From Candidatus Pelagibacter ubique HTCC1062 (lineage in GTDB: Bacteria > Pseudomonadota > Alphaproteobacteria > Pelagibacterales > Pelagibacteraceae): 32,000 nucleotides of DNA. The stretch's first letter is position 1, and every line of letters begins with the position of its first letter. Under the pieces are notes generated by a model. The model saw only the letters and a program-made list of their open reading frames with translations, was not told the origin of the DNA and searched no databases. Shown here piece by piece: positions 69-18,461 of this stretch. The position numbers and the translations under genes are program-made. The DNA lies in assembly GCF_000012345.1 (NCBI RefSeq), contig NC_007205.1:60001-92000 (forward strand), in the 5' to 3' direction.

Positions 69-2219
69 CTATCCAATTGATATTAAAGTAAGATCATCAC
101 TTAATTTTCCAGATTTAGAGCTGTCAATTATTTTTTTACTAATATCTGATAAGTGTTTCTTCGAATCTTTTGTGTAGTTATCTTCAATTATTTCAATTGA
201 ACCTTCAATACCTATTTCTTGTCCTTCAGCATTTAAACTTTCAGACAATCCATCTGTAAAAACATAAAATTTGTTTCCATTTAAAACTTGTTTATTAATT
301 TTATAAATTGATTTATTTTTTTGGTGAATAACCCCCATCGGCGGCGCTTCACTATCAAAATTTTGGTATTTACCATTTTTGTCTCTAATGATAGCTGGTT
401 GATGTCCCGCATTTACCCATGAAACTTCTTTGGTAATTAAATCATATTTTCCAAGAACACATGTCACAAACATGCCTGATGTTTTGGTGAGAAATAAATC
501 GTTATTCATATGAAGCATCATTTCATCTGGATCTACCTGATCTCTTGACATGACTTCAAATAAAGTAGAGGCTTTTGCCATCACCATTCCAGCATGAACT
601 CCCTTACCTGCTACATCTGCAATTATAAAATTAATACTATCATTATGGGGATAAAAACTAAAAAAATCACCTGAAACTTCTCTCGAAGCAATATTAATTC
701 CTTGCACAGGATAATTTTGTAAATCTCTTTTTGGTAAAAAATTTTCTTGAACTTTTACAGCCAAATTTATTTCTTTGGAAATTCTACTTCGCCACTTTTC
801 TTTTTCATTTTCGCTAACCTCAAGCTTGTTCATCAATTTATTATAATAAAGTCCTATTACCCCTCCTGCAGTGAAAGGATCTTGTGGGCCTCTAACAGAG
901 AGATCTCCACTTTCAGACTGTTTTTCAAGGATTGAAATTAAATCATGTTCTACTGAAACTGCATTATGTTCAGCAATATTTAATCCTAATTCCTCTTGTA
1001 AAGGAGTTACTCTTAATGGATAAAAATAATTTAAAATTTTTAAAATAATATAAGATCCAAAAAATGCGAAAGCACCAATTGCTAATATTCCTATAACCTG
1101 GACTTCAATTTGCTCTAACCTTGTAAGTCCTGTTCCTAATTTTTCTAAATCACTGAACAAACCAACTGAAATAGTTCCCCATACACCTGCTCCTAAATGA
1201 ACTGGCACTGCACCTACGACATCATCTATCTCATATTTGTTTAACAGTTCATTTATAAAAATTGCTACGATTGCACCAATAATACCAACAAAAATTGCCG
1301 TAACTGATGTCATTGAATTACAACCAGCTGTTATAGCAACCAATCCTGCAAGAGGACCTAATATTACATAAAATGGATCTGGTTTTTTAAATAATAAAAA
1401 TGAAATACCTAGTCCAGTTAACAACCCAAAAGCAGCAGAAAGAAATGTATTTATCAATATTAATGGCACTGTTTCATCCATTGCTCCATTACTTCCGCCA
1501 TTAAAACCAAACCAACCAAACCATAAAATTAAGGTTCCTAAAACGGCTAACGGAAAACTAGAGCCAGTAAATTTACCTTTATTAGACTCAGAATATTTAC
1601 CAATTCTTGGCCCTAAAATTAATACAGCAGCAAGTGCAATCCATCCTCCAACAGAATGAACAATAGTGCTACCAGCAAAATCAACAAAACCAAGTTCTGT
1701 TAACCATCCAGTATTTTTAATTTCTCCCGTAACAGCCGATAACTGCATTACAGTATCATTCATATTATTTAGATAACTGGATGACCAAGCCCAATGACCA
1801 ACAATTGGATAAATTATGCCAGTTGCAATTATCGTTATTATTAAATATCCATTAAATTTCATTCTTTCAGCCACAGCTCCAGAAACTATTGTTGCAGCAG
1901 TTGCAACAAACATGGCTTGGAACACAAAATATGTCATGTAATCAGCTTTTTCGGTTTTAAAGAAAAAAAGATCTGTTCCAAAAAAACCATTATAACTTGT
2001 CCCAAACATTAAGCCGAAACCAAAAATCCAAAAAACTACAACTGATAAACCAAAATCAGCAGCATTCTTAAGAGCAACGTTAATACTATTTTTGTGTCGT
2101 GAAAGACCAGTTTCCATACACATGAAACCAGCTTGCATGATGAAAACTAATATCGCACAATCAATAACCCAAAGAGTATCAACAAACGATTTTACAGATT
2201 CCAAACTAATACTTTCCAT
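69..2219 (-). CDS. Ammonium transporter (Amt/MEP) domain fused to a C-terminal PP2C/SpoIIE-type serine phosphatase domain
   Basis: The N-terminal ~400 aa is multi-TM with Amt signatures: AGFMCMETGLSRHKNSINVALKN, VDFAGSTIVHSVGGWIALAAVLILGPRIG and the second pore His in VPVHLGAGVWG. A coiled-coil-like linker follows (NKLEVSENEKEKWRSRISKEINLAVKVQENFLP). PP2C/SpoIIE motifs then follow: SGDFFSFY, IADVAGKGVHAG, FTDGLSES and DDLTLISIG. Confidence 0.85.
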   Translation of the reverse strand: MESISLESVKSFVDTLWVIDCAILVFIMQAGFMCMETGLSRHKNSINVALKNAADFGLSVVVFWIFGFGLMFGTSYNGFFGTDLFFFKTEKADYMTYFVFQAMFVATAATIVSGAVAERMKFNGYLIITIIATGIIYPIVGHWAWSSSYLNNMNDTVMQLSAVTGEIKNTGWLTELGFVDFAGSTIVHSVGGWIALAAVLILGPRIGKYSESNKGKFTGSSFPLAVLGTLILWFGWFGFNGGSNGAMDETVPLILINTFLSAAFGLLTGLGISFLLFKKPDPFYVILGPLAGLVAITAGCNSMTSVTAIFVGIIGAIVAIFINELLNKYEIDDVVGAVPVHLGAGVWGTISVGLFSDLEKLGTGLTRLEQIEVQVIGILAIGAFAFFGSYIILKILNYFYPLRVTPLQEELGLNIAEHNAVSVEHDLISILEKQSESGDLSVRGPQDPFTAGGVIGLYYNKLMNKLEVSENEKEKWRSRISKEINLAVKVQENFLPKRDLQNYPVQGINIASREVSGDFFSFYPHNDSINFIIADVAGKGVHAGMVMAKASTLFEVMSRDQVDPDEMMLHMNNDLFLTKTSGMFVTCVLGKYDLITKEVSWVNAGHQPAIIRDKNGKYQNFDSEAPPMGVIHQKNKSIYKINKQVLNGNKFYVFTDGLSESLNAEGQEIGIEGSIEIIEDNYTKDSKKHLSDISKKIIDSSKSGKLSDDLTLISIG

Positions 2220-2322
2220 TTTCTATCAATTTATAAATATCATCTTTAAATTTATTTTAAAATTTATCAATTGTTAAAGATGCGATTAATTAGCTAAAAT
2301 TAATAATAACTCTTAAAATTTC

Positions 2323-4560
2323 TTATTTACCAATTGCAATAATTGTTAAATCATCATCAAGAATATCATTATCTTTTTTAACGCCATCTTCCACAATTTC
2401 TTTTTTTAAACTTTTTAAACGAATTTCTTCTGTCGCACTTGTTAATTCTTTTTGTAATGAAGAGTTTGTGTGTTTTAGGATTAATTCTTTTACACCATCA
2501 ATTCCTATTTCTTGTTTATTTTCATCCATACATTCTGAAAATCCATCAGTAAAACAGTAAATTCGTCCACCATTTAATTTAAAGCTTTCTAATTGATAAA
2601 CACTTTCATCTTTATGCTTAATGACTGCCAAAGGCATTGAGCTTGAAGGATATTCTTTAAAATCTTTACCCACTTTTAATAAAGTTGGCTGATGTCCAGC
2701 ATTTGCAATTTCAACTAAATCTGTTTTCAAATTATATCTTCCAACAATTGAAGTAATAAAGGTACCAACAGGATTAGTTTCTTTCAAATCATTATTCATC
2801 TCTAATAAAATTTCGTTAGGCTTAAATTTTTGCTTAGCGAAGATCTTAAATAAAGTAATAGCTTTTGCCATAACCATTCCTGCATTCACCCCTTTTCCTG
2901 AAACATCAGATAGGGTGAAATACACCTCATCATCATGAAGGTAAAAATCATAAAAATCTCCCGAGATTTCTCTTGCAGGAATATTTAATCCAAATATTGG
3001 ATAGTTTTCTATATCTCTTTTTGGCATTAATCGTTGCTGAACATTCATTGCAAGTTTAATTTCTTTAGAAACTCTATTCTTCCATTTGTTTTTTTGCTTT
3101 TCACTTTGTTCCAATTTGTTCATTATGACATTATATTGCGTGCCAATAATTCCACTTTCAGTAAAAGGATCTTGTGGTGCGCGGCTTGAATAATTGTCTG
3201 ATTTTGCTTGATTAGTTAATACCTCAAGTAATTCGTGCGTGTCCGTTGATGCATTGTGTTCTGAAATATTTAAACCAAGTTCTTCATGAATTTTACTTAC
3301 TCTTAGAGGGAAAAATGAATTAATAGTTTTTAATATTAAATAAGAACCAATGAAACAAAAAGCACCAATTGAACTTATGCCAATTAGTTGAATATATATT
3401 TGTTCTAATCTTGTTTTTTCAACACCCATCAATTCAAAATTTGCAAACAAAGCAACTGCAATAGTTCCCCAAATTCCACATGCTAAGTGAACTGGTATTG
3501 CACTAACCACATCATCAATTTTAATTTTTTCAAGTAATACAATTGTTGAGCCTGAAATAATTCCACCAATACTTCCTATTATAATTGCATGAGTGGGATC
3601 AACATAAGCACAAGAAGCAGTTATTGAAACTAGTCCAGCAAGGGGACCCGTGATCATAAATAATGGCTCTGGTTTTTTTAAAACAATGATACCCATAACA
3701 CTTGAGAAAATAAGTCCAAAGGATGCTGATAAAAAAGTATTAATTAAAATTAATGGAATTTTTAAATCCATTGCACCATTAGCACCTCCATTAAATCCAA
3801 ACCAACCAAACCACAAAATTAAAGCACCTAAAGCTGCCATTGGTGTATTACTTCCTTGAAAAGATTTTTTTTTATCATCTTCTCTAAATCTTCCAGTACG
3901 GTTACCAACTACCAGTAATACTGATAAAGCAATCCATCCTCCTACAGAGTGTACAACGGATGCACCTGCAAAATCTAAATATCCTAATTGACCTAACCAA
4001 CCAAATTTTTCAGCAGGATTTTCAAAATTAAATGCCCAAGACCAGTGACCTACAATTGGATAAAAGAGGCCAGAAACTAATAATGTAATAATTATATATG
4101 AGAAAAACTTTAATCTTTCTGCAACTGCACCTGAGATAATAGTTGCAGCTGTTGCAACAAACATTGCTTGGAAGACAAAATATGTTTGATAGCCTGCAAC
4201 CTTAGTGGTGAAGAAAAAAAATTTGGTACCAAACAGTCCTGATACACTGGTTCCATACATTAATGCGAAACCAAACGCCCAAAAAACTACAACAGATATT
4301 CCAAAGTCTGAAACATTTTTAAGGGCAACGTTAATACTGTTCTTGTTCCGAGACAAACCAGTCTCTAAACACATAAAGCCTGCCTGCATTAAAAAAACAA
4401 GGATTGCACAAATTAAAAGCCAAAAGGTATCTAAATTTGCTTGTAAGATTGCATCTAAGCGAAATTCTAATGCATTTAAAGCTCCCTTATTAGTAAGCTC
4501 TAATTGATTTATGTTGGACTGCAGCTTATTGAGCAATATCTGAGTATCAGCTGCAGTCAT
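2323..4560 (-). CDS. Ammonium transporter domain fused to PP2C/SpoIIE phosphatase (paralog of the 69-2219 gene)
   Basis: Same architecture, colinear over the full length: AGFMCLETGLSRNKNSINVALKN, LDFAGASVVHSVGGWIALSVLLVVGNRTG, IPVHLACGIWG, then SGDFYDFY, LSDVSGKGVNAG, FTDGFSEC and DDLTIIAIG. It has an extra ~45-aa N-terminal extension. Confidence 0.85.
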   Translation of the reverse strand: MTAADTQILLNKLQSNINQLELTNKGALNALEFRLDAILQANLDTFWLLICAILVFLMQAGFMCLETGLSRNKNSINVALKNVSDFGISVVVFWAFGFALMYGTSVSGLFGTKFFFFTTKVAGYQTYFVFQAMFVATAATIISGAVAERLKFFSYIIITLLVSGLFYPIVGHWSWAFNFENPAEKFGWLGQLGYLDFAGASVVHSVGGWIALSVLLVVGNRTGRFREDDKKKSFQGSNTPMAALGALILWFGWFGFNGGANGAMDLKIPLILINTFLSASFGLIFSSVMGIIVLKKPEPLFMITGPLAGLVSITASCAYVDPTHAIIIGSIGGIISGSTIVLLEKIKIDDVVSAIPVHLACGIWGTIAVALFANFELMGVEKTRLEQIYIQLIGISSIGAFCFIGSYLILKTINSFFPLRVSKIHEELGLNISEHNASTDTHELLEVLTNQAKSDNYSSRAPQDPFTESGIIGTQYNVIMNKLEQSEKQKNKWKNRVSKEIKLAMNVQQRLMPKRDIENYPIFGLNIPAREISGDFYDFYLHDDEVYFTLSDVSGKGVNAGMVMAKAITLFKIFAKQKFKPNEILLEMNNDLKETNPVGTFITSIVGRYNLKTDLVEIANAGHQPTLLKVGKDFKEYPSSSMPLAVIKHKDESVYQLESFKLNGGRIYCFTDGFSECMDENKQEIGIDGVKELILKHTNSSLQKELTSATEEIRLKSLKKEIVEDGVKKDNDILDDDLTIIAIGK

Positions 4561-6489: not shown

Positions 6490-6774
6490 ATGAAATATAA
6501 AGTTACAGATAATGAAAATGTAAGCACTGTTTTTCTTACTGGAGAAATAGATATGGATGTTGCAGATGAGGTAAGAGAAATTGTTTTTCCTTTAATTGAT
6601 GCTGGAAAAGAAGTTCATTTAAATTTAAAAGATGTACCCTACATGGACTCTTCTGGTATATCGATAATTATAGAAAGCAATCAAAGAGCTCGAGAGAAAA
6701 ATACTAAAGTTGAACTTAAAGAGGTTAGTCAACCTGTTGAAAAAGTTCTAGCAATGGCAAGAAAGTTTTTATGA
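6490..6774 (+). CDS. STAS-domain anti-sigma-factor antagonist (SpoIIAA/RsbV family)
   Basis: 94 aa with the conserved phosphorylatable-serine context YMDSSGISIIIES (compare DSSGL in SpoIIAA/RsbV). Its 4-nt ATGA overlap with the next STAS gene suggests translational coupling. Confidence 0.8.
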   Translation: MKYKVTDNENVSTVFLTGEIDMDVADEVREIVFPLIDAGKEVHLNLKDVPYMDSSGISIIIESNQRAREKNTKVELKEVSQPVEKVLAMARKFL

Positions 6775-7070
6775 CATACAAAATTACAGAAGAAGACAAT
6801 ATAAGCACCATATTTTTAGATGGTGAAATAGACATGGATAAAACGGATGAAGTTAAGGGAGTTATCTTTCCTGTTATCGACTCTGGTAAAAATGTTGCTT
6901 TAAATCTAAGTAATGTTCAATACATGGATTCTTCTGGTATTTCAGTTTTAATAGAAAGTCATCAAAAAGCCCTTGAGAAGGGAACCAAGCTTGTCATTAA
7001 AGATGTGAGTAAATCTGTTTTAAAAGTAATCATGATGGCAAAGTTAGAACAAATTTTAAATTTGGAGTAA
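6771..7070 (+). CDS. STAS-domain anti-sigma-factor antagonist, second tandem paralog
   Basis: 99 aa with the same YMDSSGISVLIES motif. 54 of 94 aligned positions are identical to the upstream paralog by my hand alignment. Confidence 0.8.
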   Translation: MTYKITEEDNISTIFLDGEIDMDKTDEVKGVIFPVIDSGKNVALNLSNVQYMDSSGISVLIESHQKALEKGTKLVIKDVSKSVLKVIMMAKLEQILNLE

Positions 7071-7077
7071 ATAAATT

Positions 7078-7512
7078 ATGAGTTTAGAAAACTTTAGTCA
7101 TTCAGAAAAAAAAGATTTTTTAGTTAGCTCAGCAAGTTTGAAAGATGTCAGAGCTTTTTCTAGAGATGTTTTTGAAAAATTTAAAATTGATGAAGATTTA
7201 AGAGAAGAGTTAGTTTTAGCGATTGCTGAAGCTGCGCAAAATATAGTTAAACATGCATATAAAGATATGCCTGACACTCAAGATAAAATGGTTGTAAGAA
7301 TATCTTGTAATGATGATGTTCTAGAGATTTCTTTCTTTGATAAAGGCAAACCAGTAGAAAAAAGCAAAGTTAAACATAGAGCGATCGATGATATTAAACC
7401 AGGTGGACTAGGAACATTTTTCATTCAACAAATTATGGATTCAATTAATTTTGAACCAGGAAAAGAACCCTGGATTAATAATTTAGTTTTAACTAAAAAA
7501 TTAAAAAATTAG
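7078..7512 (+). CDS. RsbW/SpoIIAB-like anti-sigma-factor-type serine protein kinase (HATPase_c)
   Basis: 144 aa with an N-box-like EAAQNIVKHAY and a G-box-like KPGGLGTFFIQQIMD. It lies immediately downstream of the two STAS genes, the classic antagonist-kinase order. Confidence 0.75.
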   Translation: MSLENFSHSEKKDFLVSSASLKDVRAFSRDVFEKFKIDEDLREELVLAIAEAAQNIVKHAYKDMPDTQDKMVVRISCNDDVLEISFFDKGKPVEKSKVKHRAIDDIKPGGLGTFFIQQIMDSINFEPGKEPWINNLVLTKKLKN

Positions 7513-13226: not shown

Positions 13227-15770
13227 CTATATTTTACCTGTTTTAATTTTTACAAACACTCTAAAGCCTTTCATTGTAGCACCACCTGCTGTAGATTTTG
13301 GTAATCGCATTGATGATAAAGATGCTTGCTCAACCAATTTTTGATTTCCTAAATTTTCTATAAATTTCAATATATCTTGATCACTTGCAGCTATTCCTTG
13401 AATAGTTAATCTTCTAGATCCATTAAATTCAACTTGATCAAATTTTACACGGTTTGGAACACTTGAGGCTACTTGAGCTAAAATTCTATAAGTTAATTCT
13501 TTATTTGATTTAAGTGTTCTACTTAATTTTAAAGACGTATTAATTACACTAAGTTCTTTTGAAACTATTTTTTTCTGTTTAATAATTTTAGCATGATCTA
13601 TTTTTACAGTTTCATATTGTTTTAATTTTTTATTATAGGAAGCAATATTCCAAAAAGATAAACCAAATAATACCACATAAATTGCAACTACAGCAGCAGT
13701 AATACCCTTGAATGCAAAACCTGAAATTGCTTTCATCTTCTTTTGCTTCATTACATTTGATCTATCTGGAAGAAGATTTATATTTTTAACTGCAGTAACA
13801 AATTTATAATAACCAAAGACATCAAGTTTTCTAAAGGCTAAGCCAACAGAAGTAGATAGATAAGATCTATTTAACTTATTATCTAAAATTTGTTGATACT
13901 GACTTGGAATTTTTAATCCTTCAGTAGGATCAAAAGTGTTAAATCCAACATTCATTAAAATTTTTCTAAAACTTCCTAAATATTCGTCTACATTTTTGAT
14001 ATCTGAAACAACTTTTATGTTTCGAATTCTCTTTTCATATTTAGTCTCAAAATCTTGAATTGCTTGCTTAACTTGAGTAACATATCTTCTAACTAATCCT
14101 TCTTTTTCTTCAGTATCTTGAGAATCTTGTAAAATTTTTCTATCTTGCCCTCTAATAAAAATATCAGTTATTATTGGGTTATTATTATAGAGGATCATTA
14201 AATAATTTTCATCTAATCCAAATTCTAAAACAGCAGTTAAATTGGCATCCTCAGTTTTATTTGTTATTTGATTAACTTGATCAACTGATGACTTTAAAGC
14301 AAAACATTTAACATCTATGATTACAGGATTTAAACCTGCATTTTTAATTATTGAAGTATAACTATTTATATCTGTTAATTTTGATGCAACGAATAAAATA
14401 TCCATTGTATTTTCTTTATCATTTCTATTTATGACTTGATGAAAAATAGAATAATCTTCCAAACTATCTGTTAGTTGAACTAGGTTTTCCCACAATGAAT
14501 TAGTTTCGATTGCTTTATTTAATTCATCTTCTTTCATTAAAGGTGCGGTGACTACTCTTATGATTGCACTAGTTACCGGAATAGCAATTGCTGCATTTGG
14601 TGAAGTTATTTTGTATTTTTGAATTGCTAATACTAATTCTTCTGAAAATTTATCCGCATTATCAATTGGAGTACTATCATCTGTAATGTCGACGGGGTGA
14701 ATATGTAATTTTTCTAACACCCATTGATTAGCTTTGTTACTAGAAACTTGGACTATTCTTATTTCTTTATTTGCTAACTCAATACCAATTATTTCTTCGC
14801 CTTGAACACTAGATTTACCTAATTTGGATTTGAAAAAATTTTGTATTTTTGATTTATAATTTCCAACTTTAGAATTATTAAAAGATGATTTTTTTATATT
14901 TTTAGCAAAATCTGGTTTTTTAATTTTAATTTCCTTAATTTTTCCAAAAATATTTGATAATTTACTTTTTACCTGATCTTGGGTAGATATTTCTGAGTTT
15001 TCATTTAATGGAACACTTGAAGTTTGTGGTTGTGCTTCATTATTACTTTGATTGGTTGTTGAAATATCAATTTGTGAAGATTCACCCTCTTCTGGCTTAA
15101 TATTTTCTTCAATTTTTAATTTTTTACTTTCTTCATGAACATCATCAAACCATTTTTCCAAAATTGGTATTGCATCATCTAAATTTGTTGTTCCAGAAGA
15201 TGAAATTTTTTGTTTACCATCAATATAAAGTCTACCTACCCAGTTTCTTGATTTAAGTTCACCTTTATATTTATCTTGCCTTACATATATATGTAGTCTT
15301 CCATCTTTTTTATGAATTACCTCATGCTCTTTTTTTTGTTCCTCATTATTAGTATTTGATGCACTTACATTTTGCTCAACAGATTCATCTTGAGATTGTA
15401 AAGTTTCTGAATTTTCAGTTAAATTATCATTTTCATTGGATTTTTCTGATTCATTATTATCAGTTTCTTGAGGATTTAAAGTATCAGTTGAATCGTTTTC
15501 AGATTGGTTTTCCTGATCACTCTTTAAAGTCTCTTCATCATTATTAGTATTTGATGCACTTACATTTTGCTCAACAGATTCATCTTGAGATTGTAAAGTT
15601 TCTGAATTTTCAGTTAAATTATCATTTTCATTGGATTTTTCTGATTCATTATTATCAGTTTCTTGAGGATTTAAAGTATCAGTTGAATCGTTTTCAGATT
15701 GGTTTTCCTGATCACTCTTGAGAGTATCTTCCTCTTTATAATCAAATTTGTCTTTATTATCTTCGTCCAT
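13227..15770 (-). CDS. PilM-PilN fusion protein with a ~325-aa N-terminal extension
   Basis: Residues ~325-660 are PilM-like actin-fold (EIIGIELANKEIRIVQVS...). Residues 663-847 are PilN: the INLLPDR motif at about 13764-13790, a TM (ITAAVVAIYVVLFGLSFW) and a periplasmic domain. The N-terminal extension is acidic and Asn/Ser-rich with a duplicated 65-aa unit, followed by a Lys-rich block. Confidence 0.75.
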   Translation of the reverse strand: MDEDNKDKFDYKEEDTLKSDQENQSENDSTDTLNPQETDNNESEKSNENDNLTENSETLQSQDESVEQNVSASNTNNDEETLKSDQENQSENDSTDTLNPQETDNNESEKSNENDNLTENSETLQSQDESVEQNVSASNTNNEEQKKEHEVIHKKDGRLHIYVRQDKYKGELKSRNWVGRLYIDGKQKISSSGTTNLDDAIPILEKWFDDVHEESKKLKIEENIKPEEGESSQIDISTTNQSNNEAQPQTSSVPLNENSEISTQDQVKSKLSNIFGKIKEIKIKKPDFAKNIKKSSFNNSKVGNYKSKIQNFFKSKLGKSSVQGEEIIGIELANKEIRIVQVSSNKANQWVLEKLHIHPVDITDDSTPIDNADKFSEELVLAIQKYKITSPNAAIAIPVTSAIIRVVTAPLMKEDELNKAIETNSLWENLVQLTDSLEDYSIFHQVINRNDKENTMDILFVASKLTDINSYTSIIKNAGLNPVIIDVKCFALKSSVDQVNQITNKTEDANLTAVLEFGLDENYLMILYNNNPIITDIFIRGQDRKILQDSQDTEEKEGLVRRYVTQVKQAIQDFETKYEKRIRNIKVVSDIKNVDEYLGSFRKILMNVGFNTFDPTEGLKIPSQYQQILDNKLNRSYLSTSVGLAFRKLDVFGYYKFVTAVKNINLLPDRSNVMKQKKMKAISGFAFKGITAAVVAIYVVLFGLSFWNIASYNKKLKQYETVKIDHAKIIKQKKIVSKELSVINTSLKLSRTLKSNKELTYRILAQVASSVPNRVKFDQVEFNGSRRLTIQGIAASDQDILKFIENLGNQKLVEQASLSSMRLPKSTAGGATMKGFRVFVKIKTGKI
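15344..15733. repeat. Two-copy 195-bp in-frame tandem duplication inside the pilMN 5' region
   Basis: 15344-15524 is identical base for base to 15539-15719 (181 nt, hand-checked), giving a period of 195 nt or 65 codons. The unit encodes EETLKSDQENQSENDSTDTLNPQETDNNESEKSNENDNLTENSETLQSQDESVEQNVSASNTNN. Confidence 0.9.
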
Positions 15771-15834
15771 AAAACTTATAAATAAAAATTAATATTTAAA
15801 TTGTTAATTGATTCTCTAACACAAAATTAATAAA

Positions 15835-15845
15835 ATTCTAACACA
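15835..15845 (-). promoter_or_regulatory. Candidate extended -10 element (TGTGTTAGAAT read on the minus strand) for the pilMN operon
   Basis: The reverse complement of attctaacaca gives TG-T-TAGAAT, i.e. TGn plus a 5/6 match to TATAAT. It lies ~65 nt upstream of the pilMN ATG (15770). No good -35 sits at 17 nt; TTGAAC at 15862-15867 is 21 nt away. AT-rich context makes chance matches likely. Confidence 0.25.
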
Positions 15846-16138
15846 AGATTATAATCATTATGTTCAAAATGGGTTGAATTTAATAAGAAACTATAAAATA
15901 TTCAATTAAATCAACAGTTTATTAAAATCATTGAAAAAAATTAAATTTAAGATATTTTTTTCTAAATAATATTTTCTCTAACACATTTATCATAATTTTA
16001 TCTTTTTATATTGTGTTAGAAATTTAATATTTTTTTCTATTTTTAAAAAATAAGTAAAATAGCTATTTTTTATTAAAACAACTTTTAATTGTTTTTTGTG
16101 TGAGAGAAAATTTTTTTTGTGTGAGAGAAAAATTTATT

Positions 16139-16149
16139 TGTGTTATAAT
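16139..16149 (+). promoter_or_regulatory. Candidate extended -10 element TGTGTTATAAT on the plus strand
   Basis: Perfect TGnTATAAT within the duplicated context tttatttgtgttataatt. It points rightwards into the palindrome array, with no ORF downstream. Confidence 0.2.
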
Positions 16150-16167
16150 TTTTTTAATTTTTTTTGT

Positions 16168-16311
16168 TTAGAATTATTCTAATATATTTTTTTTTCCTAC
16201 ATTAGAAATATTCCAAACTATTTTTTTTCTCTTTAGAAAGATTCTAATATATTTTTATTTTACTTTAGAAAGATTCTAATATATTTTTTGCAAATTTTAG
16301 AATTATTCTAA
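16168..16311. repeat. Five-unit ~32-bp tandem array, each unit carrying the palindrome TTAGAA-N3-TTCTAA
   Basis: Palindromes lie at 16168-16182, 16202-16216 (TTCCAA, one mismatch), 16233-16247, 16265-16279 and 16297-16311. Spacings are 34, 31, 32 and 32 nt. Each is followed by a TATATTTTT-like tract. Confidence 0.85.
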
Positions 16312-16502
16312 TTTATAAAAAAAAAAAATTATTTTTTTTCTCTAACACAAAAATTTTATTCTAACACATTTAAAAAAAAAAAAAATTATTTCATTTTGTG
16401 TTAGAAAATTAACATAATATTCTTTTTTAAAAAAGTAAGCAAAATCAACGTTTTTAATATTATGAATATAAAACATAAAATGTGTTAGAGCTATATTTAT
16501 TT

Positions 16503-16513
16503 TGTGTTATAAT
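16503..16513 (+). promoter_or_regulatory. Candidate extended -10 element TGTGTTATAAT on the plus strand (second copy)
   Basis: Same 20-nt context as 16139 (tttattttgtgttataatt). It points toward the less AT-rich repeat segment 16690-17114 and would run antisense into the 3' end of the GAF::PP2C gene. Confidence 0.2.
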
Positions 16514-16586
16514 TATTAATATTATCATATTTTTAAAAAAGTCAATAAAATCAACATTTTTTATATTTTCAATAAATTTATTGATT

Positions 16587-16660
16587 TGTGTTAGAGATAA
16601 TTTTAATTTTTATCCTATGTGTTAGAAATAATTTATATTTTTTATGCTGTGTGTTAGAGA
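16587..16660. repeat. Three-unit ~32-bp tandem array starting with TGTGTTAGAR-ATAA
   Basis: Units start at 16587, 16618 and 16650 (spacings 31 and 32 nt): tgtgttagagataatttt..., tgtgttagaaataattta..., tgtgttagagataaatat... Confidence 0.8.
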
Positions 16661-16857
16661 TAAATATGAATATTAACAAAAGCTCAAACAGCCTTACATC
16701 ACTCATCCCTTTGGGATAATATATATAAATTTTAACATTGATCCATCAATTGTTGATTATTGCGGATGGCAATATTAGATTTTGATACAATTTATATTAT
16801 GGTTAAAGCCTAAATCTGGGGACTAAACTCAAATTAACTAATTAAATCTGATTTGTG

Positions 16858-16958
16858 GCAAATTATGAGAGATTTCACTCTAAATTAGAGATTTGACTAC
16901 CAGTATAGGATTTATAGCAAATTATGAGAGATTTCACTCTAAATTAGAGATTTGACTA
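16858..16958. repeat. 59-bp-period direct repeat (42-nt identical core x2, plus a degenerate third unit to ~17026) with an internal palindrome CTCTAA-A-TTAGAG
   Basis: 16858-16899 equals 16917-16958 (gcaaattatgagagatttcactctaaattagagatttgacta). Internal palindromes lie at 16878-16890 and 16937-16949. The third unit (~16968-17026) retains TTCTAA...GATATTTGAC...TTAGAA. Confidence 0.85.
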
Positions 16959-17114
16959 GGATTGCAGGATTTATTTCTAATTATCAGATATTTGACCCAA
17001 AATTAGAATTATTACATGAAACTGGGGGTAATTACTCTTATTAACTGGAAACTATCCCATAAACATTTTTACTCTATCTTAAAGAGTGTAAATAAAAACA
17101 TCTATCCATAATTA

Positions 17115-18461
17115 TTAACCATCAACCGTTACAATTGTTAAATCATCCTTTTGTATTCGACCAGATTTAATTATATCCTCGATAATCTTGTTTAATCTTT
17201 CATGGTTTGGAATTTGTTGATACTTTTTTATATAATCTTTAAATCCTTCTGCCTCTAACATATTTCCTTTAGCATCTCTTATTTCCGTAATACCATCAGT
17301 AAAAATATACATTGAGCTGTTTGAAAAATTAATTTTAGTTTCTTTAAATTTAAACTTAGGAGCAATGCCTAAAGGAGGTCCTGCTTCTTCAAAATTAGAA
17401 AAGTTTCCATCTTTAGAATAAATTAACGGAGGTTCATGACCAGCGTTTGATAAAGTTAATTCTTTTTTGTTACTATCGTAAATTCCAACCAGCATTGTTA
17501 CAAACATTCCTCTTGAAGTAGTTTCACAAATTTCTGTATTTAAAATATCTAAAAGACCTGCTGCAGAAAAATTTGTTTTACTTAAACATCTATAAAGACT
17601 AGATGCTTTAGACATTAGTAATGAAGATTTAATTCCTTTACCTGAAACATCTGCAACTCCAAATCCATAAACTCCATTGGATAATTCTGAAAAATTATAA
17701 AAGTCTCCAGAAACAACCTTGGCAGGAATATTTATTCCAGCAATAGGAAAATTTTCTTTAATGTTTTGAGATAGTAATGTTTTTTGAATCTCTCCAACAA
17801 TTTCTATTTCTTTTTCTATTCTATTTTTAACAATCAAATCTTTTGCCATCTTAGCATTTCTAATTGCTAATGCAGCAGGACCAGATAAAGTTTCTAAAAG
17901 TTTTCTATCGCTTTCTTCAAAAAGTTTGTTGTCTGTTTTTTTATTTAAACAATGAATAACACCAATACATTCATCTGAAACAATTAATGGTGAACATAAA
18001 ACAGAATAAGTTGTAAAATTTGTTTTATTATCTAAATCAAAATAAAATTCTGCAATTTCTCTTACATCCTTTCTAACATCTCCAACTCTTATACATTGTT
18101 TCATGAGTGCTGCTTTTCCCATGACACCTTGAGTAATTGGAATTTCAAAATCTTCTAGATATGCTTGGTGTTTTGATGCAATACATTGAAAGTTTTGCTT
18201 ATCATTATCTATTAAAAAAATGTTAGCAGCTTGAGCATTAATTCTTTTAATAATTAGCTCTAATGAAGTTTGTAGTGTTTCTTTTAAATCAAGAGTTTTA
18301 GCAAACTCCTGGCTCATTTTTGTAACCAATTCTAAGTCTTTAACGCTCGTATTGTCGACTTTTATTGTTTCTGTTTTTTTAGCACCAAAAAACATGTTAT
18401 TTATAAATTGATATTCATTAAATTTTTGATAGTTTTGAGACTGATGGAACTCATTATTCAT
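17115..18461 (-). CDS. GAF-domain-containing PP2C/SpoIIE-type serine phosphatase
   Basis: The N-terminal half is GAF-like (LETLQTSLELIIKRINAQAANIFLID...GVMGKAALMKQCIRVGDV...CSPLIVSDECIGVIHCLNK). The C-terminal half has PP2C motifs: SGDFYNFS, VADVSGKGIKSS, FTDGITEI and DDLTIVTVDG. Confidence 0.8.
   Translation of the reverse strand: MNNEFHQSQNYQKFNEYQFINNMFFGAKKTETIKVDNTSVKDLELVTKMSQEFAKTLDLKETLQTSLELIIKRINAQAANIFLIDNDKQNFQCIASKHQAYLEDFEIPITQGVMGKAALMKQCIRVGDVRKDVREIAEFYFDLDNKTNFTTYSVLCSPLIVSDECIGVIHCLNKKTDNKLFEESDRKLLETLSGPAALAIRNAKMAKDLIVKNRIEKEIEIVGEIQKTLLSQNIKENFPIAGINIPAKVVSGDFYNFSELSNGVYGFGVADVSGKGIKSSLLMSKASSLYRCLSKTNFSAAGLLDILNTEICETTSRGMFVTMLVGIYDSNKKELTLSNAGHEPPLIYSKDGNFSNFEEAGPPLGIAPKFKFKETKINFSNSSMYIFTDGITEIRDAKGNMLEAEGFKDYIKKYQQIPNHERLNKIIEDIIKSGRIQKDDLTIVTVDG

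Follow-up and report, generated by a model that had tools for sequence, protein, structure and literature searches.

The repeated 11-letter word in the gap upstream of the pilM-pilN fusion gene (pilMN) of Candidatus Pelagibacter (SAR11) is, judging from its sequence, a real and deeply conserved array of predicted protein-binding sites, and its likeliest binder would be an integrase-derived domain fused to the PilMN protein itself. The window, i.e. the whole 32-kb stretch of DNA that was analysed, is a type IV pilus locus. The array occupies a 1344-bp gap and consists of copies of the 9-mer TGTGTTAGA, around which the full 11-mer motif reads TTGTGTTAGAG (TGTCTTACA is a mutated form of TGTGTTAGA). 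The first-pass annotation had hand-counted 11 strong copies and 4 close variants. Both numbers were confirmed: 11 exact copies of TGTGTTAGA lie at 15815-16658 and none elsewhere in the 32 kb, and the four variants (TGTGTGAGA at 16097 and 16118, TGTGTTATA at 16139 and 16503) differ from the motif by one mismatch each. Dinucleotide shuffling of the whole window gives an expectation of 0.22 copies, with 2 in the largest shuffle, and an expectation of 0.0 when only the region 15813-16660 is shuffled; the enrichment holds against this composition-matched background. The layout was also described correctly, with five copies on the minus strand (15815, 15837, 15977, 16341 and 16360), six on the plus strand (16012, 16397, 16481, 16587, 16618 and 16650), two inverted arrangements (TCTAACACA-N26-TGTGTTAGA at 15977-16020 and the same with N28 at 16360-16405) and two close direct pairs. 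The features of the locus are:

13227-15770, minus strand: pilM-pilN fusion gene, 847 aa, directly downstream of the array
15135-15326, minus strand: PilMN N-domain (aa 149-212, 64 residues), basic and beta-rich, homologue of integrase N-termini and proposed motif binder
15810-15814: GANTC site (GAATC), abutting the motif copy at 15815
15814-15824, minus strand: full 11-mer of the 15815 copy
15815-15823, minus strand: motif copy oriented towards pilMN, 53 bp before its ATG
15837-15845, minus strand: motif copy, 75 bp before the ATG of pilMN, in a direct pair with the 15815 copy, 22 bp apart
15860-15873, minus strand: conserved element CCCATTTTGAACAT, candidate -10 of the pilMN promoter
15896-15916, plus strand: accessory box copy AAATATTCAATTAAATCAACA, reverse complement of the conserved TGTTGATTTTATTGAC box
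15977-15985, minus strand: motif copy, inner member of an inverted pair with 16012
16012-16020, plus strand: motif copy, inverted partner of 15977-15985, with a 26-bp gap between them
16047-16073, plus strand: weaker accessory box copy AAAAAATAAGTAAAATAGCTATTTTTT, part of the 70-nt motif-plus-box module D2
16097-16147, plus strand: three variants with one mismatch each, at 21-bp intervals (TGTGTGAGA at 16097 and 16118, TGTGTTATA at 16139)
16167-16312, no strand assigned: five palindromes with a spacing of about 32 bp (starts 16167, 16201, 16232, 16264 and 16296)
16341-16349, minus strand: motif copy that opens a direct pair with a spacing of 19 bp
16360-16368, minus strand: motif copy, also the left arm of an inverted pair with 16397, gap 28 bp
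16397-16405, plus strand: motif copy, followed by an accessory box (module D2)
16430-16450: accessory box after motif copy 16397 (module D2)
16481-16511, plus strand: motif copy (16481-16489) and variant TGTGTTATA (16503-16511), 22 bp apart
16536-16556: accessory box AAAAAGTCAATAAAATCAACA, after copy 16481 and variant 16503
16587-16658, plus strand: three motif copies (16587, 16618 and 16650), spaced by 31 and 32 bp, i.e. three helical turns
16850-17026, plus strand: three tandem 59-bp units with the palindrome CTCTAAATTAGAG, the third unit 63% identical; lineage-specific

The idea that these repeats are many binding sites of a DNA-binding protein gained support from the comparison of SAR11 lineages. 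TTGTGTTAGAG does not vary among about 160 diverged SAR11 loci, whereas the sequence separating its copies is free to change. Across 339 distinct site contexts the 11 motif positions are invariant or nearly so, the motif flanks carry no information and the spacers cannot be aligned. The 11-mer is present in every lineage compared, and its 11 bases do not change across lineages whose flanking proteins share only 69-76% identity. Because it is invariant in such distant relatives, the motif is not the product of a recent local duplication, which had been named as an alternative. It follows from the same invariance that no co-variation between domain and site is measurable within SAR11. All pil-type loci that have the N-domain carry 4-11 copies upstream, and natural variants of the array differ in copy number, with 11, 8 (the L010 type, which has a 91-bp deletion) or 5 copies. 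Spacings between neighbours cluster at 21, 31-32, 85, 106, 116-117 and 127 bp, values close to multiples of 10.5, with 21 bp the commonest spacing of direct pairs. Within an array the distal copies share one orientation and the proximal copies have the opposite one; the promoter-proximal copies read towards pilMN in most lineages and away from it in L212, L213 and many metagenome lineages.

In the SAR11 loci scanned (1.09 Mb), the motif is almost confined to this one gap, which contains 585 of the 589 copies found. Sites at other pil or competence promoters, as had been suggested, did not turn up: the rest of the window is free of copies, and on SAR11-type metagenome contigs all direct pairs occur at pilMN or in pilus context. 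Among 120 metagenome contigs with a direct pair, the N-domain gene was adjacent in 109; seven were cut by the contig end, two of which were inspected (L258 and L331) and showed a pilus gene context, and four were unrelated tandem repeats from organisms with 35-65% G+C. A scan of viral contigs for motif pairs returned only chance-level noise and tandem repeats. As the motif is not dispersed, it was rejected as a DNA uptake sequence (DUS/USS), which would have hundreds of genome-wide copies (here, none outside the gap in 32 kb and four in 1.09 Mb). A replication origin was rejected on a cumulative GC skew that falls steadily, with no sustained sign change, and on genes that lie on the same strand at both sides, and DnaA boxes (TTATCCACA-like) match poorly, sharing 5 of 9 bases with the motif by our own comparison. 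A known structured or small RNA family was set aside as well, with none found in Rfam and an orientation that is not conserved. A hidden pilin or other small gene in the gap was rejected too, its ORFs being at most 47 aa long and all of low complexity. None of the papers searched has the motif in a relevant context, and a 2009 survey of P. ubique intergenic regions mentions neither the pil genes nor the motif.

Other elements of the gap have to be kept apart from the 11-mer. The first-pass annotation had assigned all repeat families to one protein through a shared TTAGA core, which it estimated to occur about 30 times. The enrichment of the pentamer was upheld (4.35 +/- 1.9 in shuffles), but the count is 21 in 15813-16660 and 28 in the whole gap, and the single-protein reading was not supported. 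Eleven of the 21 occurrences of TTAGA/TCTAA in 15813-16660 lie inside the 9-mer, and nine of the other ten inside the five palindromes, so that the enrichment results from two separate motif families. The palindromes read TTTAGAA-N3-TTCTAAT, 1-2 mismatches from the Irr/ICE consensus TTTAGAA-N3-TTCTAAA, and were seen only in the HTCC1062-like lineage, where their number varies (L005 has one extra unit). By sequence they are a separate, lineage-specific site family. The 11-mer, tested in the same way, is asymmetric and shares only TTAGA with the ICE half-site. P. ubique encodes Irr (PMC1698941, PMC2864753) and the PilA protein of HTCC1062 is up 2.2-fold under iron limitation (PMC2864753); the palindromes hint that in this one lineage iron may be an input, through Irr.

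Nearer to pilMN, the conserved CCCATTTTGAACAT element reads CC-YAWWWT-G across lineages, some of which have TATAAT or TAAAAT. This makes it a candidate for the -10 region from which pilMN is transcribed, and if it does serve as one, the proximal motif copies would lie downstream of the transcription start. In L075, L084 and L089 the accessory box is inverted. An invertible promoter switch was considered for this reason, but was rejected since the motif copies on either side are not inverted along with the box. Gene content just distal to the array varies between lineages (a 100-aa ORF, an HTH protein, a transporter, a methyltransferase or the 59-bp repeats, the 100-aa ORF taking the place of the 59-bp units in other lineages), and many single-cell and metagenome assemblies break at this point.

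The earlier statement that no regulator is encoded in the window has to be revised, since pilMN, directly downstream of the array, encodes an N-terminal domain homologous to the N-terminal domains of integrases, the part of those proteins in which arm-type DNA-binding domains are located. The protein consists of an acidic tail (aa 1-148), the N-domain, a linker, PilM (matched at about 329-533) and PilN (about 763-825); after the N-domain it holds only PilM_2 and PilN domains, and the N-domain is the best-conserved part of its N-terminal extension. An exhaustive profile search with this domain, which brought the integrase link to light, returned only 152 clusters. The matches outside pilus proteins include tyrosine recombinases of 314-436 aa with E-values of 8e-20 to 4e-6 (P0319 at 8e-20, P0335 at 7e-14, and P0339, P0343, P0350, P0353 and P0372). 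In these the homologue sits at the extreme N-terminus (aa ~3-85), followed by a Phage_integrase catalytic domain and in some cases by a weak Phage_int_SAM_1 match. A BLASTP comparison of the N-domain with an integrase gives 53% identity over 62 aa. Searches for a known family found nothing in Pfam at E <= 10 (nor any arm-binding family in the related integrases), no match in NCBIfam and no solved structure among PDB sequence profiles. A first, low-diversity AlphaFold model gave no match, Foldseek hits in the PDB were not significant, and in BFVD the best E-value was 0.25, with integrases and homing (HNH/GIY-YIG) endonucleases among the top hits. An hhalign comparison with approximate lambda Int arm and AP2 sequences gave no match. 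A stand-alone N-domain ORF without the motif (L211) was set aside as possibly stemming from a chimeric low-coverage contig.

The related integrase genes adjoin tRNA-Leu and have repeats of their own just before the ATG, which share the core of CTCTAACACAA: TCGTACACAA and inverted TTGTGTTATAG in L215, four TCATACACG and an inverted copy in L218, CTCGTACAC/T and an inverted copy in L220, and two TTGACACC and an inverted copy in L214. Their layout of two direct copies, one inverted copy and then the ATG is also found in L212 and L213, although direct pairs are 21 bp apart at pilMN and 11 bp apart at the integrase genes. In addition, a 17-nt box of L220 and L221 (ATTTTACTTACTTTTTT) recurs in pil arrays at 20 loci, with 20 of 20 copies inside the array, and in blastn the shared accessory box aligns with 28 of 30 identities (E 1e-5). 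Based on its place in the protein and on the repeat layout, the integrase N-domain presumably binds the nearby repeats. No integrase relatives were found in IMG/VR or in GenBank phage records.

Taken together, we consider it slightly more likely than not that the 11-mers are arm-type sites, that the N-domain of PilMN binds them and that the whole module was domesticated from an integrase. The N-domain, the arm sites and the accessory box would have been co-opted jointly from the 5' end of a gene for a tRNA-targeting tyrosine integrase, leaving 5-11 arm-type sites on one helix face, within the 350-900 bp before pilMN. The PilN part anchors PilMN in the inner membrane, with PilM facing the cytoplasm, and several molecules could therefore hold the pil promoter region wrapped at the pilus machine. 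Through such a wrapped complex the pilMNOPQ-BC gene row may come under feedback control of its own transcription; we infer the physical binding, the promoter positions and the sign of this regulation. A bolder version, which we offer only tentatively, is that this SAR11 pilus part is a sequence-specific DNA-binding platform, a ring that wraps its own phased promoter array. PilM assembles as a ring, and many arm domains would therefore be presented on flexible acidic linkers. The pil locus would be physically tied to assembled machines, and transcription could then report the assembly state. If true, this would be an assembly checkpoint working by DNA tethering and the first case in which an attP arm module serves the cell as a regulatory circuit.

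Alternatively, the sites could be read by a separate trans-acting regulator encoded elsewhere, such as a response regulator that, like LytTR proteins, recognises direct repeats separated by two helical turns, with the N-domain having another role. LytTR sites are 9 bp long with a 12-bp spacer and a GTTAG-like core, which fits the 21-bp spacing of direct pairs, and AlgR controls minor pilin genes in Pseudomonas. SAR11 pilus expression also responds to darkness, starvation and iron (PMC3090418, PMC2864753). We nevertheless regard this as rather unlikely: no LytTR or other candidate DNA-binding protein is found among the window ORFs, a motif confined to one locus would be unusual for a dedicated regulator in a genome with very few regulators, and both the N-domain homologues in integrases beside similar repeats and the shared accessory box would be left unexplained. 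The integrase origin of domain, repeats and box would also suit a relic of an old integration, in which an attP arm remained and a truncated int gene became fused to pilM, now functionless or only a docking or recombination site for integrases of related mobile elements; the variable gene content and the assembly breaks distal to the array point the same way. A relic would decay, however, yet the 11 bases are invariant while the spacers turn over and the N-domain is the part of the extension that is conserved best. Moreover, the window has no tRNA, att site or core-type site, and no integrase or catalytic integrase domain among its ORFs. This alternative is improbable.

Even less probable, to the point of being very doubtful, is a motif acting at the RNA level, in which the leader of pilMN would contain UUGUGUUAGAG repeats that an RNA-binding protein recognises or that pair with an upstream transcript carrying the CUCUAACACAA complement; an inverted pair would form an 11-bp hairpin. 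In most lineages three sense copies do lie between the -10-like element and the ATG, and a promoter-like box further upstream would give rise to a transcript beginning at complementary copies. A sense-strand RNA motif in the leader was nevertheless dropped once the opposite orientation was seen in L212 and L213. Since the orientation relative to pilMN differs between lineages, with the proximal copies reversed there and in many metagenome lineages, DNA sites are favoured over an RNA motif. The spacing also follows the DNA helical repeat, variants such as TGTGTGAGA lack a compensating partner, and there is no Rfam match at gathering score or E <= 1.

SAR11 is the ocean's most abundant bacterial group and its genome is among the most streamlined known: intergenic spacers are very short and regulators very few. 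A strictly selected gap of 0.4-1.3 kb before pilMN is unusual for this reason. Pili and pilA are regulated in HTCC1062 with no regulator known (PMC3090418, PMC2864753), and pili have been seen in starved, dark-kept SAR11 cells, where they may serve DNA uptake or cell-cell contact (PMC3090418, PMC12789548). A Red Sea transcription-start data set lists nothing for the pil genes. The array offers a testable circuit, consisting of an 11-bp site, a 64-residue domain and natural copy-number variants, and it would illustrate a route by which parts of mobile elements (an arm-binding domain and its sites) become regulatory hardware of the host.

Among known systems, the arm sites of lambda-family integrases (the P and P' arms of attP) resemble the pil array in layout: short asymmetric sites, each some 10 bp long, recur as direct and inverted copies within a few hundred bp of AT-rich DNA, with an accessory box between them. 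In both, the site array adjoins the gene for the binding domain (a predicted binder in the case of PilMN), a small beta-sheet-plus-helix module at the extreme N-terminus. However, PilMN and its array lack core-binding and catalytic domains as well as a core site and a tRNA, and recombination at the pil array is therefore not expected. The domain is here fused to a pilus assembly protein and matches no Pfam arm-binding family, and throughout a whole bacterial family the array keeps to a single chromosomal locus. LytTR sites (AgrA, AlgR) are likewise intergenic direct repeats about 21 bp apart, and AlgR regulates pilus genes, but their consensus matches only in the GTTAG core and the LytTR domain is absent from the window. 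The likeness to Irr/ICE operators concerns the five palindromes at 16167-16312 and not the 11-mer, which is no palindrome, and the ICE-like array sits in a pilus locus rather than beside iron genes. Finally, the membrane-anchored one-component regulators ToxR/TcpP and CadC also have a cytoplasmic DNA-binding domain, which one transmembrane segment attaches to the inner membrane, and the targets of TcpP/ToxR include pilus genes. These regulators carry winged-helix OmpR-type domains and periplasmic sensor domains, whereas PilMN, the carrier here, is itself a structural component of the pilus machine, and its predicted DNA-binding domain would be derived from an integrase.

The repeated motif lies in an AT-rich intergenic gap of a type IV pilus locus (pilC, pilB, pilQ, pilP, pilO, pilD, pilY1, minor pilins, pilT and two pilins) that is also present on genome contigs of Pelagibacteraceae. 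The window derives from Candidatus Pelagibacter (SAR11, HTCC1062-like), and a protein encoded beside the gap is 100% identical to ones assigned to P. ubique/communis. An ORF scan of the gap found nothing longer than 47 aa.

Features of the gap and its borders:
13227-15770, minus strand: pilM-pilN fusion gene (pilMN), one border of the gap
15771-17114: motif-bearing gap, 1344 bp, 18-19% G+C
15896-15916, 16047-16073, 16430-16450 and 16536-16556: accessory box (TGTTGATTTTATTGAC on the pilMN strand)
16167-16312: five TTTAGAA-N3-TTCTAAT palindromes, ~32-bp spacing
16850-17026: three tandem 59-bp units, the third degenerate, containing the palindrome CTCTAAATTAGAG
17115-18461, minus strand: GAF-PP2C phosphatase gene, the other border

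Around the pilus locus (69-4560, 6490-7512, 17115-18461) there is also a partner-switching set of two STAS proteins, an RsbW-like kinase, the GAF-PP2C phosphatase and two ammonium-transporter-PP2C fusions. The set has no sigma factor gene close by and may control the pilus post-translationally, as an additional layer.

Exact copies of TGTGTTAGA number 11, all within 15815-16658, against 0.22 expected in the window, and four one-mismatch copies lie in the same stretch. The first-pass annotation is borne out on these counts, on the orientation of the copies, on both inverted arrangements and on both close direct pairs. The excess of TTAGA/TCTAA that it reported is likewise real (21 against 4.35 expected in 15813-16660), although the count is 21 and not about 30. 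As 11 of these occurrences fall within the 9-mer and 9 in the five palindromes, the single core proposed for all repeats resolves into two separate families. One promoter-proximal copy (AGAGATTCG) is directly followed by a GANTC site (15810-15814), the sequence methylated by CcrM. Such a site accompanies a promoter-proximal copy at about -40 from the pilMN ATG in most lineages, including locus L014, and hints at a cell-cycle or methylation input.

The five palindromes match the consensus of the iron control element (ICE) bound by Irr, TTTAGAA-N3-TTCTAAA (PMC1698941). P. ubique encodes both Irr and Fur, and PilA protein was 2.2-fold up in iron-limited HTCC1062 (PMC2864753); for P. ubique, an earlier regulon study had listed no more than one or two ICE sites. 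The palindrome array occurs only in the HTCC1062-like lineage, with a copy number that varies by strain (one extra 32-bp unit in L005), and most plausibly represents a second input restricted to that lineage, separate from the 11-mer system. The palindrome CTCTAAATTAGAG consists of two TTAGAG halves without the TGTG part. In place of the 59-bp units, other lineages carry a conserved 100-aa ORF (L014 7362-7664), probably a membrane protein.

Among close metagenome relatives the gap is 98-99.5% identical. One of them, L010, has lost 91 bp (window 16360-16450) and retains 8 exact copies instead of 11, with one accessory box missing, which would make it useful as a natural experiment. Between 5 and 11 exact copies precede pilMN in ~60 Pelagibacteraceae genomes (flanking GAF protein 75-100% identical), and 90 more metagenome loci whose upstream region is complete have 2-9 exact copies each. 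Multiple alignment shows an invariant 11-mer TTGTGTTAGAG, with unalignable sequence separating the copies; across 339 distinct site contexts, information outside the 9-mer is confined to the preceding T and the following G. Even in the more distant L212 and L213, which have another upstream gene, the array fills the whole 360-bp gap. Because the 11-mer is kept in such diverged and distant loci, a recent local duplication, which the first-pass annotation had named as a scenario that would refute its reading, is excluded.

The motif is also nearly confined to this location. In 1.09 Mb of SAR11 DNA around the pilMN locus, 585 copies lie inside the gap and 4 elsewhere. A metagenome contig scan with a direct pair of the 11-mer as query returned 120 contigs, 109 of which carry an adjacent PilMN N-domain gene; 7 are cut by the contig end (the two inspected, L258 and L331, adjoin pilY1 or pilT) and 4 are unrelated tandem repeats from organisms of 35-65% G+C. 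Direct pairs at other SAR11 loci were absent from these 120 contigs, which is meaningful because other loci would be sampled at similar depth.

The first-pass annotation had found no suitable regulator in the window. The adjoining pilMN, however, encodes a candidate binder, a domain homologous to the N-termini of tyrosine recombinases. The PilM domain is preceded by an extension of 320 residues, comprising an acidic tail, a basic domain and a linker:
PilMN aa 1-148: acidic tail, pI 4.05
PilMN aa 149-212: basic N-domain, 64 residues, the best-conserved part of the extension

Sequence searches of Pfam, NCBIfam and PDB gave no match to the N-domain, and its profile, run exhaustively against 1.84 billion representative proteins, yielded only 152 clusters. 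These are SAR11 PilMN N-termini and short fragments, with distant members that include tyrosine recombinases of 314-436 aa, in which the domain occupies the extreme N-terminus and is followed by a Phage_integrase catalytic domain (in P0350 and P0351, a weak SAM-like core-binding match follows as well). By BLASTP, the PilMN N-domain is 53% identical to P0319 over 62 residues and 44% to P0350. In lambda-type three-domain integrases, the extreme N-terminus is the arm-type DNA-binding domain. A confident model from a mixed alignment (pLDDT 89) predicts four strands followed by a long helix; fold searches with it gave no significant match (the best viral matches, including integrases and homing endonucleases, had E > 0.2), leaving the predicted fold unconfirmed. 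The acidic tail contains a tandem duplication (15345-15725, PilMN aa 16-142) with a 65-aa period and exact 62-aa copies from aa 16 and 81, which is polymorphic (782 aa in L006 and L007 versus 847 aa). A stand-alone N-domain ORF (77% identical) adjoins metH and an Fe-S protein gene in L211 (5001-5399), a contig of ~3x coverage that may be chimeric, and has no motif upstream.

The N-domain integrase genes adjoin tRNA-Leu genes on their contigs and carry, 30-200 bp before the start codon, repeated 9-10-mers that share a core with CTCTAACACAA:
L215/L217: TCGTACACAA two to three times, plus inverted TTGTGTTATAG
L218: TCATACACG four times, plus an inverted copy
L220: CTCGTACAC and CTCGTACAT, plus an inverted copy
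L214: TTTGACACCT twice, plus an inverted copy

Their order (two direct, one inverted, ATG) is the same as in pil loci L212 and L213. In addition, a 17-nt box of L220/L221, ATTTTACTTACTTTTTT, has exactly the sequence of the accessory box within pil arrays (blastn, 28/30 identities, E 1e-5); it occurs in 20 pil loci, each time inside the array. Domain, site type and accessory box thus all suggest that the pilMN upstream region came from the 5' end of an integrase gene. L214-L221 represent small integrative elements at tRNA-Leu in AT-rich marine bacteria, some with a resolvase and a DNA methyltransferase, and have no match in GenBank phage records or IMG/VR. Their integrases share the N-domain of PilMN, and their paired arm-like repeats are 11 bp apart. 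The accessory box itself is conserved and keeps a fixed distance of ~44 nt to a motif copy; L075, L084 and L089 have it in inverted orientation. It may serve as a promoter -35/UP region or a bending-protein site. Motif-plus-box modules are tandemly multiplied in the window lineage and in the Uisw_114/116 lineage (L012, L013, L019).

Same-orientation neighbours are mostly 21 bp apart (range 19-23), other same-orientation spacings (31-32, 85, 106, 116-117 and 127 bp) are all near multiples of 10.5, and the members of inverted pairs lie 25-26 or 35-36 bp from each other. Usually the proximal copies face pilMN and the distal copies face away, but the switch point shifts by lineage, and in L212, L213 and many others the copies closest to the ATG point away from the gene. 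A transcript-level motif would hold a fixed orientation; this variation, the near-helical spacing and the lack of an Rfam match for the region make a role in RNA unlikely, and the copies are read as protein sites on one DNA face. Such sites could possibly be bound by a separate trans-acting regulator. The 21-bp direct-repeat spacing resembles that of LytTR regulator sites, yet the window encodes no LytTR regulator. A relic without function would hardly keep its sites invariant while spacers diverge. Alternatively, the array is possibly a docking site for mobile-element integrases, a role that would agree with the differences in gene content immediately distal to it. This hotspot, between the GAF gene and the array, holds 1.6-3 kb of extra genes in L070, L072, L073, L078, L080, L081 and L088, among them genes for a small HTH protein, a transporter-like membrane protein, a putative methyltransferase and a 483-aa membrane protein. 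In many single-cell and metagenome assemblies the contig stops directly past the GAF gene (L015, L021, L022, L025, L028, L031, L032, L038, L045, L052, L054, L055 and others); the AT-rich repeated gap tends to break assemblies.

In the most likely model, PilMN molecules anchored in the membrane would bind the phased sites through their N-domains and, together with a binder of the accessory box, build a wrapped complex on the pilMN promoter region. About 105 bp before the pilMN ATG, a conserved CC-YAWWWT-G element (TATAAT or TAAAAT in some lineages) is a plausible -10 of this promoter. The proximal copies would then lie downstream of the transcription start, which would suggest repression by occupancy. 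PilM forms a ring in other species, so avidity for the array would grow with assembly, and machine assembly could feed back on transcription. Perhaps, as a speculation, the acidic tail could mask the basic N-domain. Searchable literature yielded no description of the motif, the PilMN N-domain or their link. Regulator-site arrays and integrase arm sites are known kinds of system; their reuse with a pilus assembly protein as the carrier, a fixed trait throughout SAR11, is a new variation on them.
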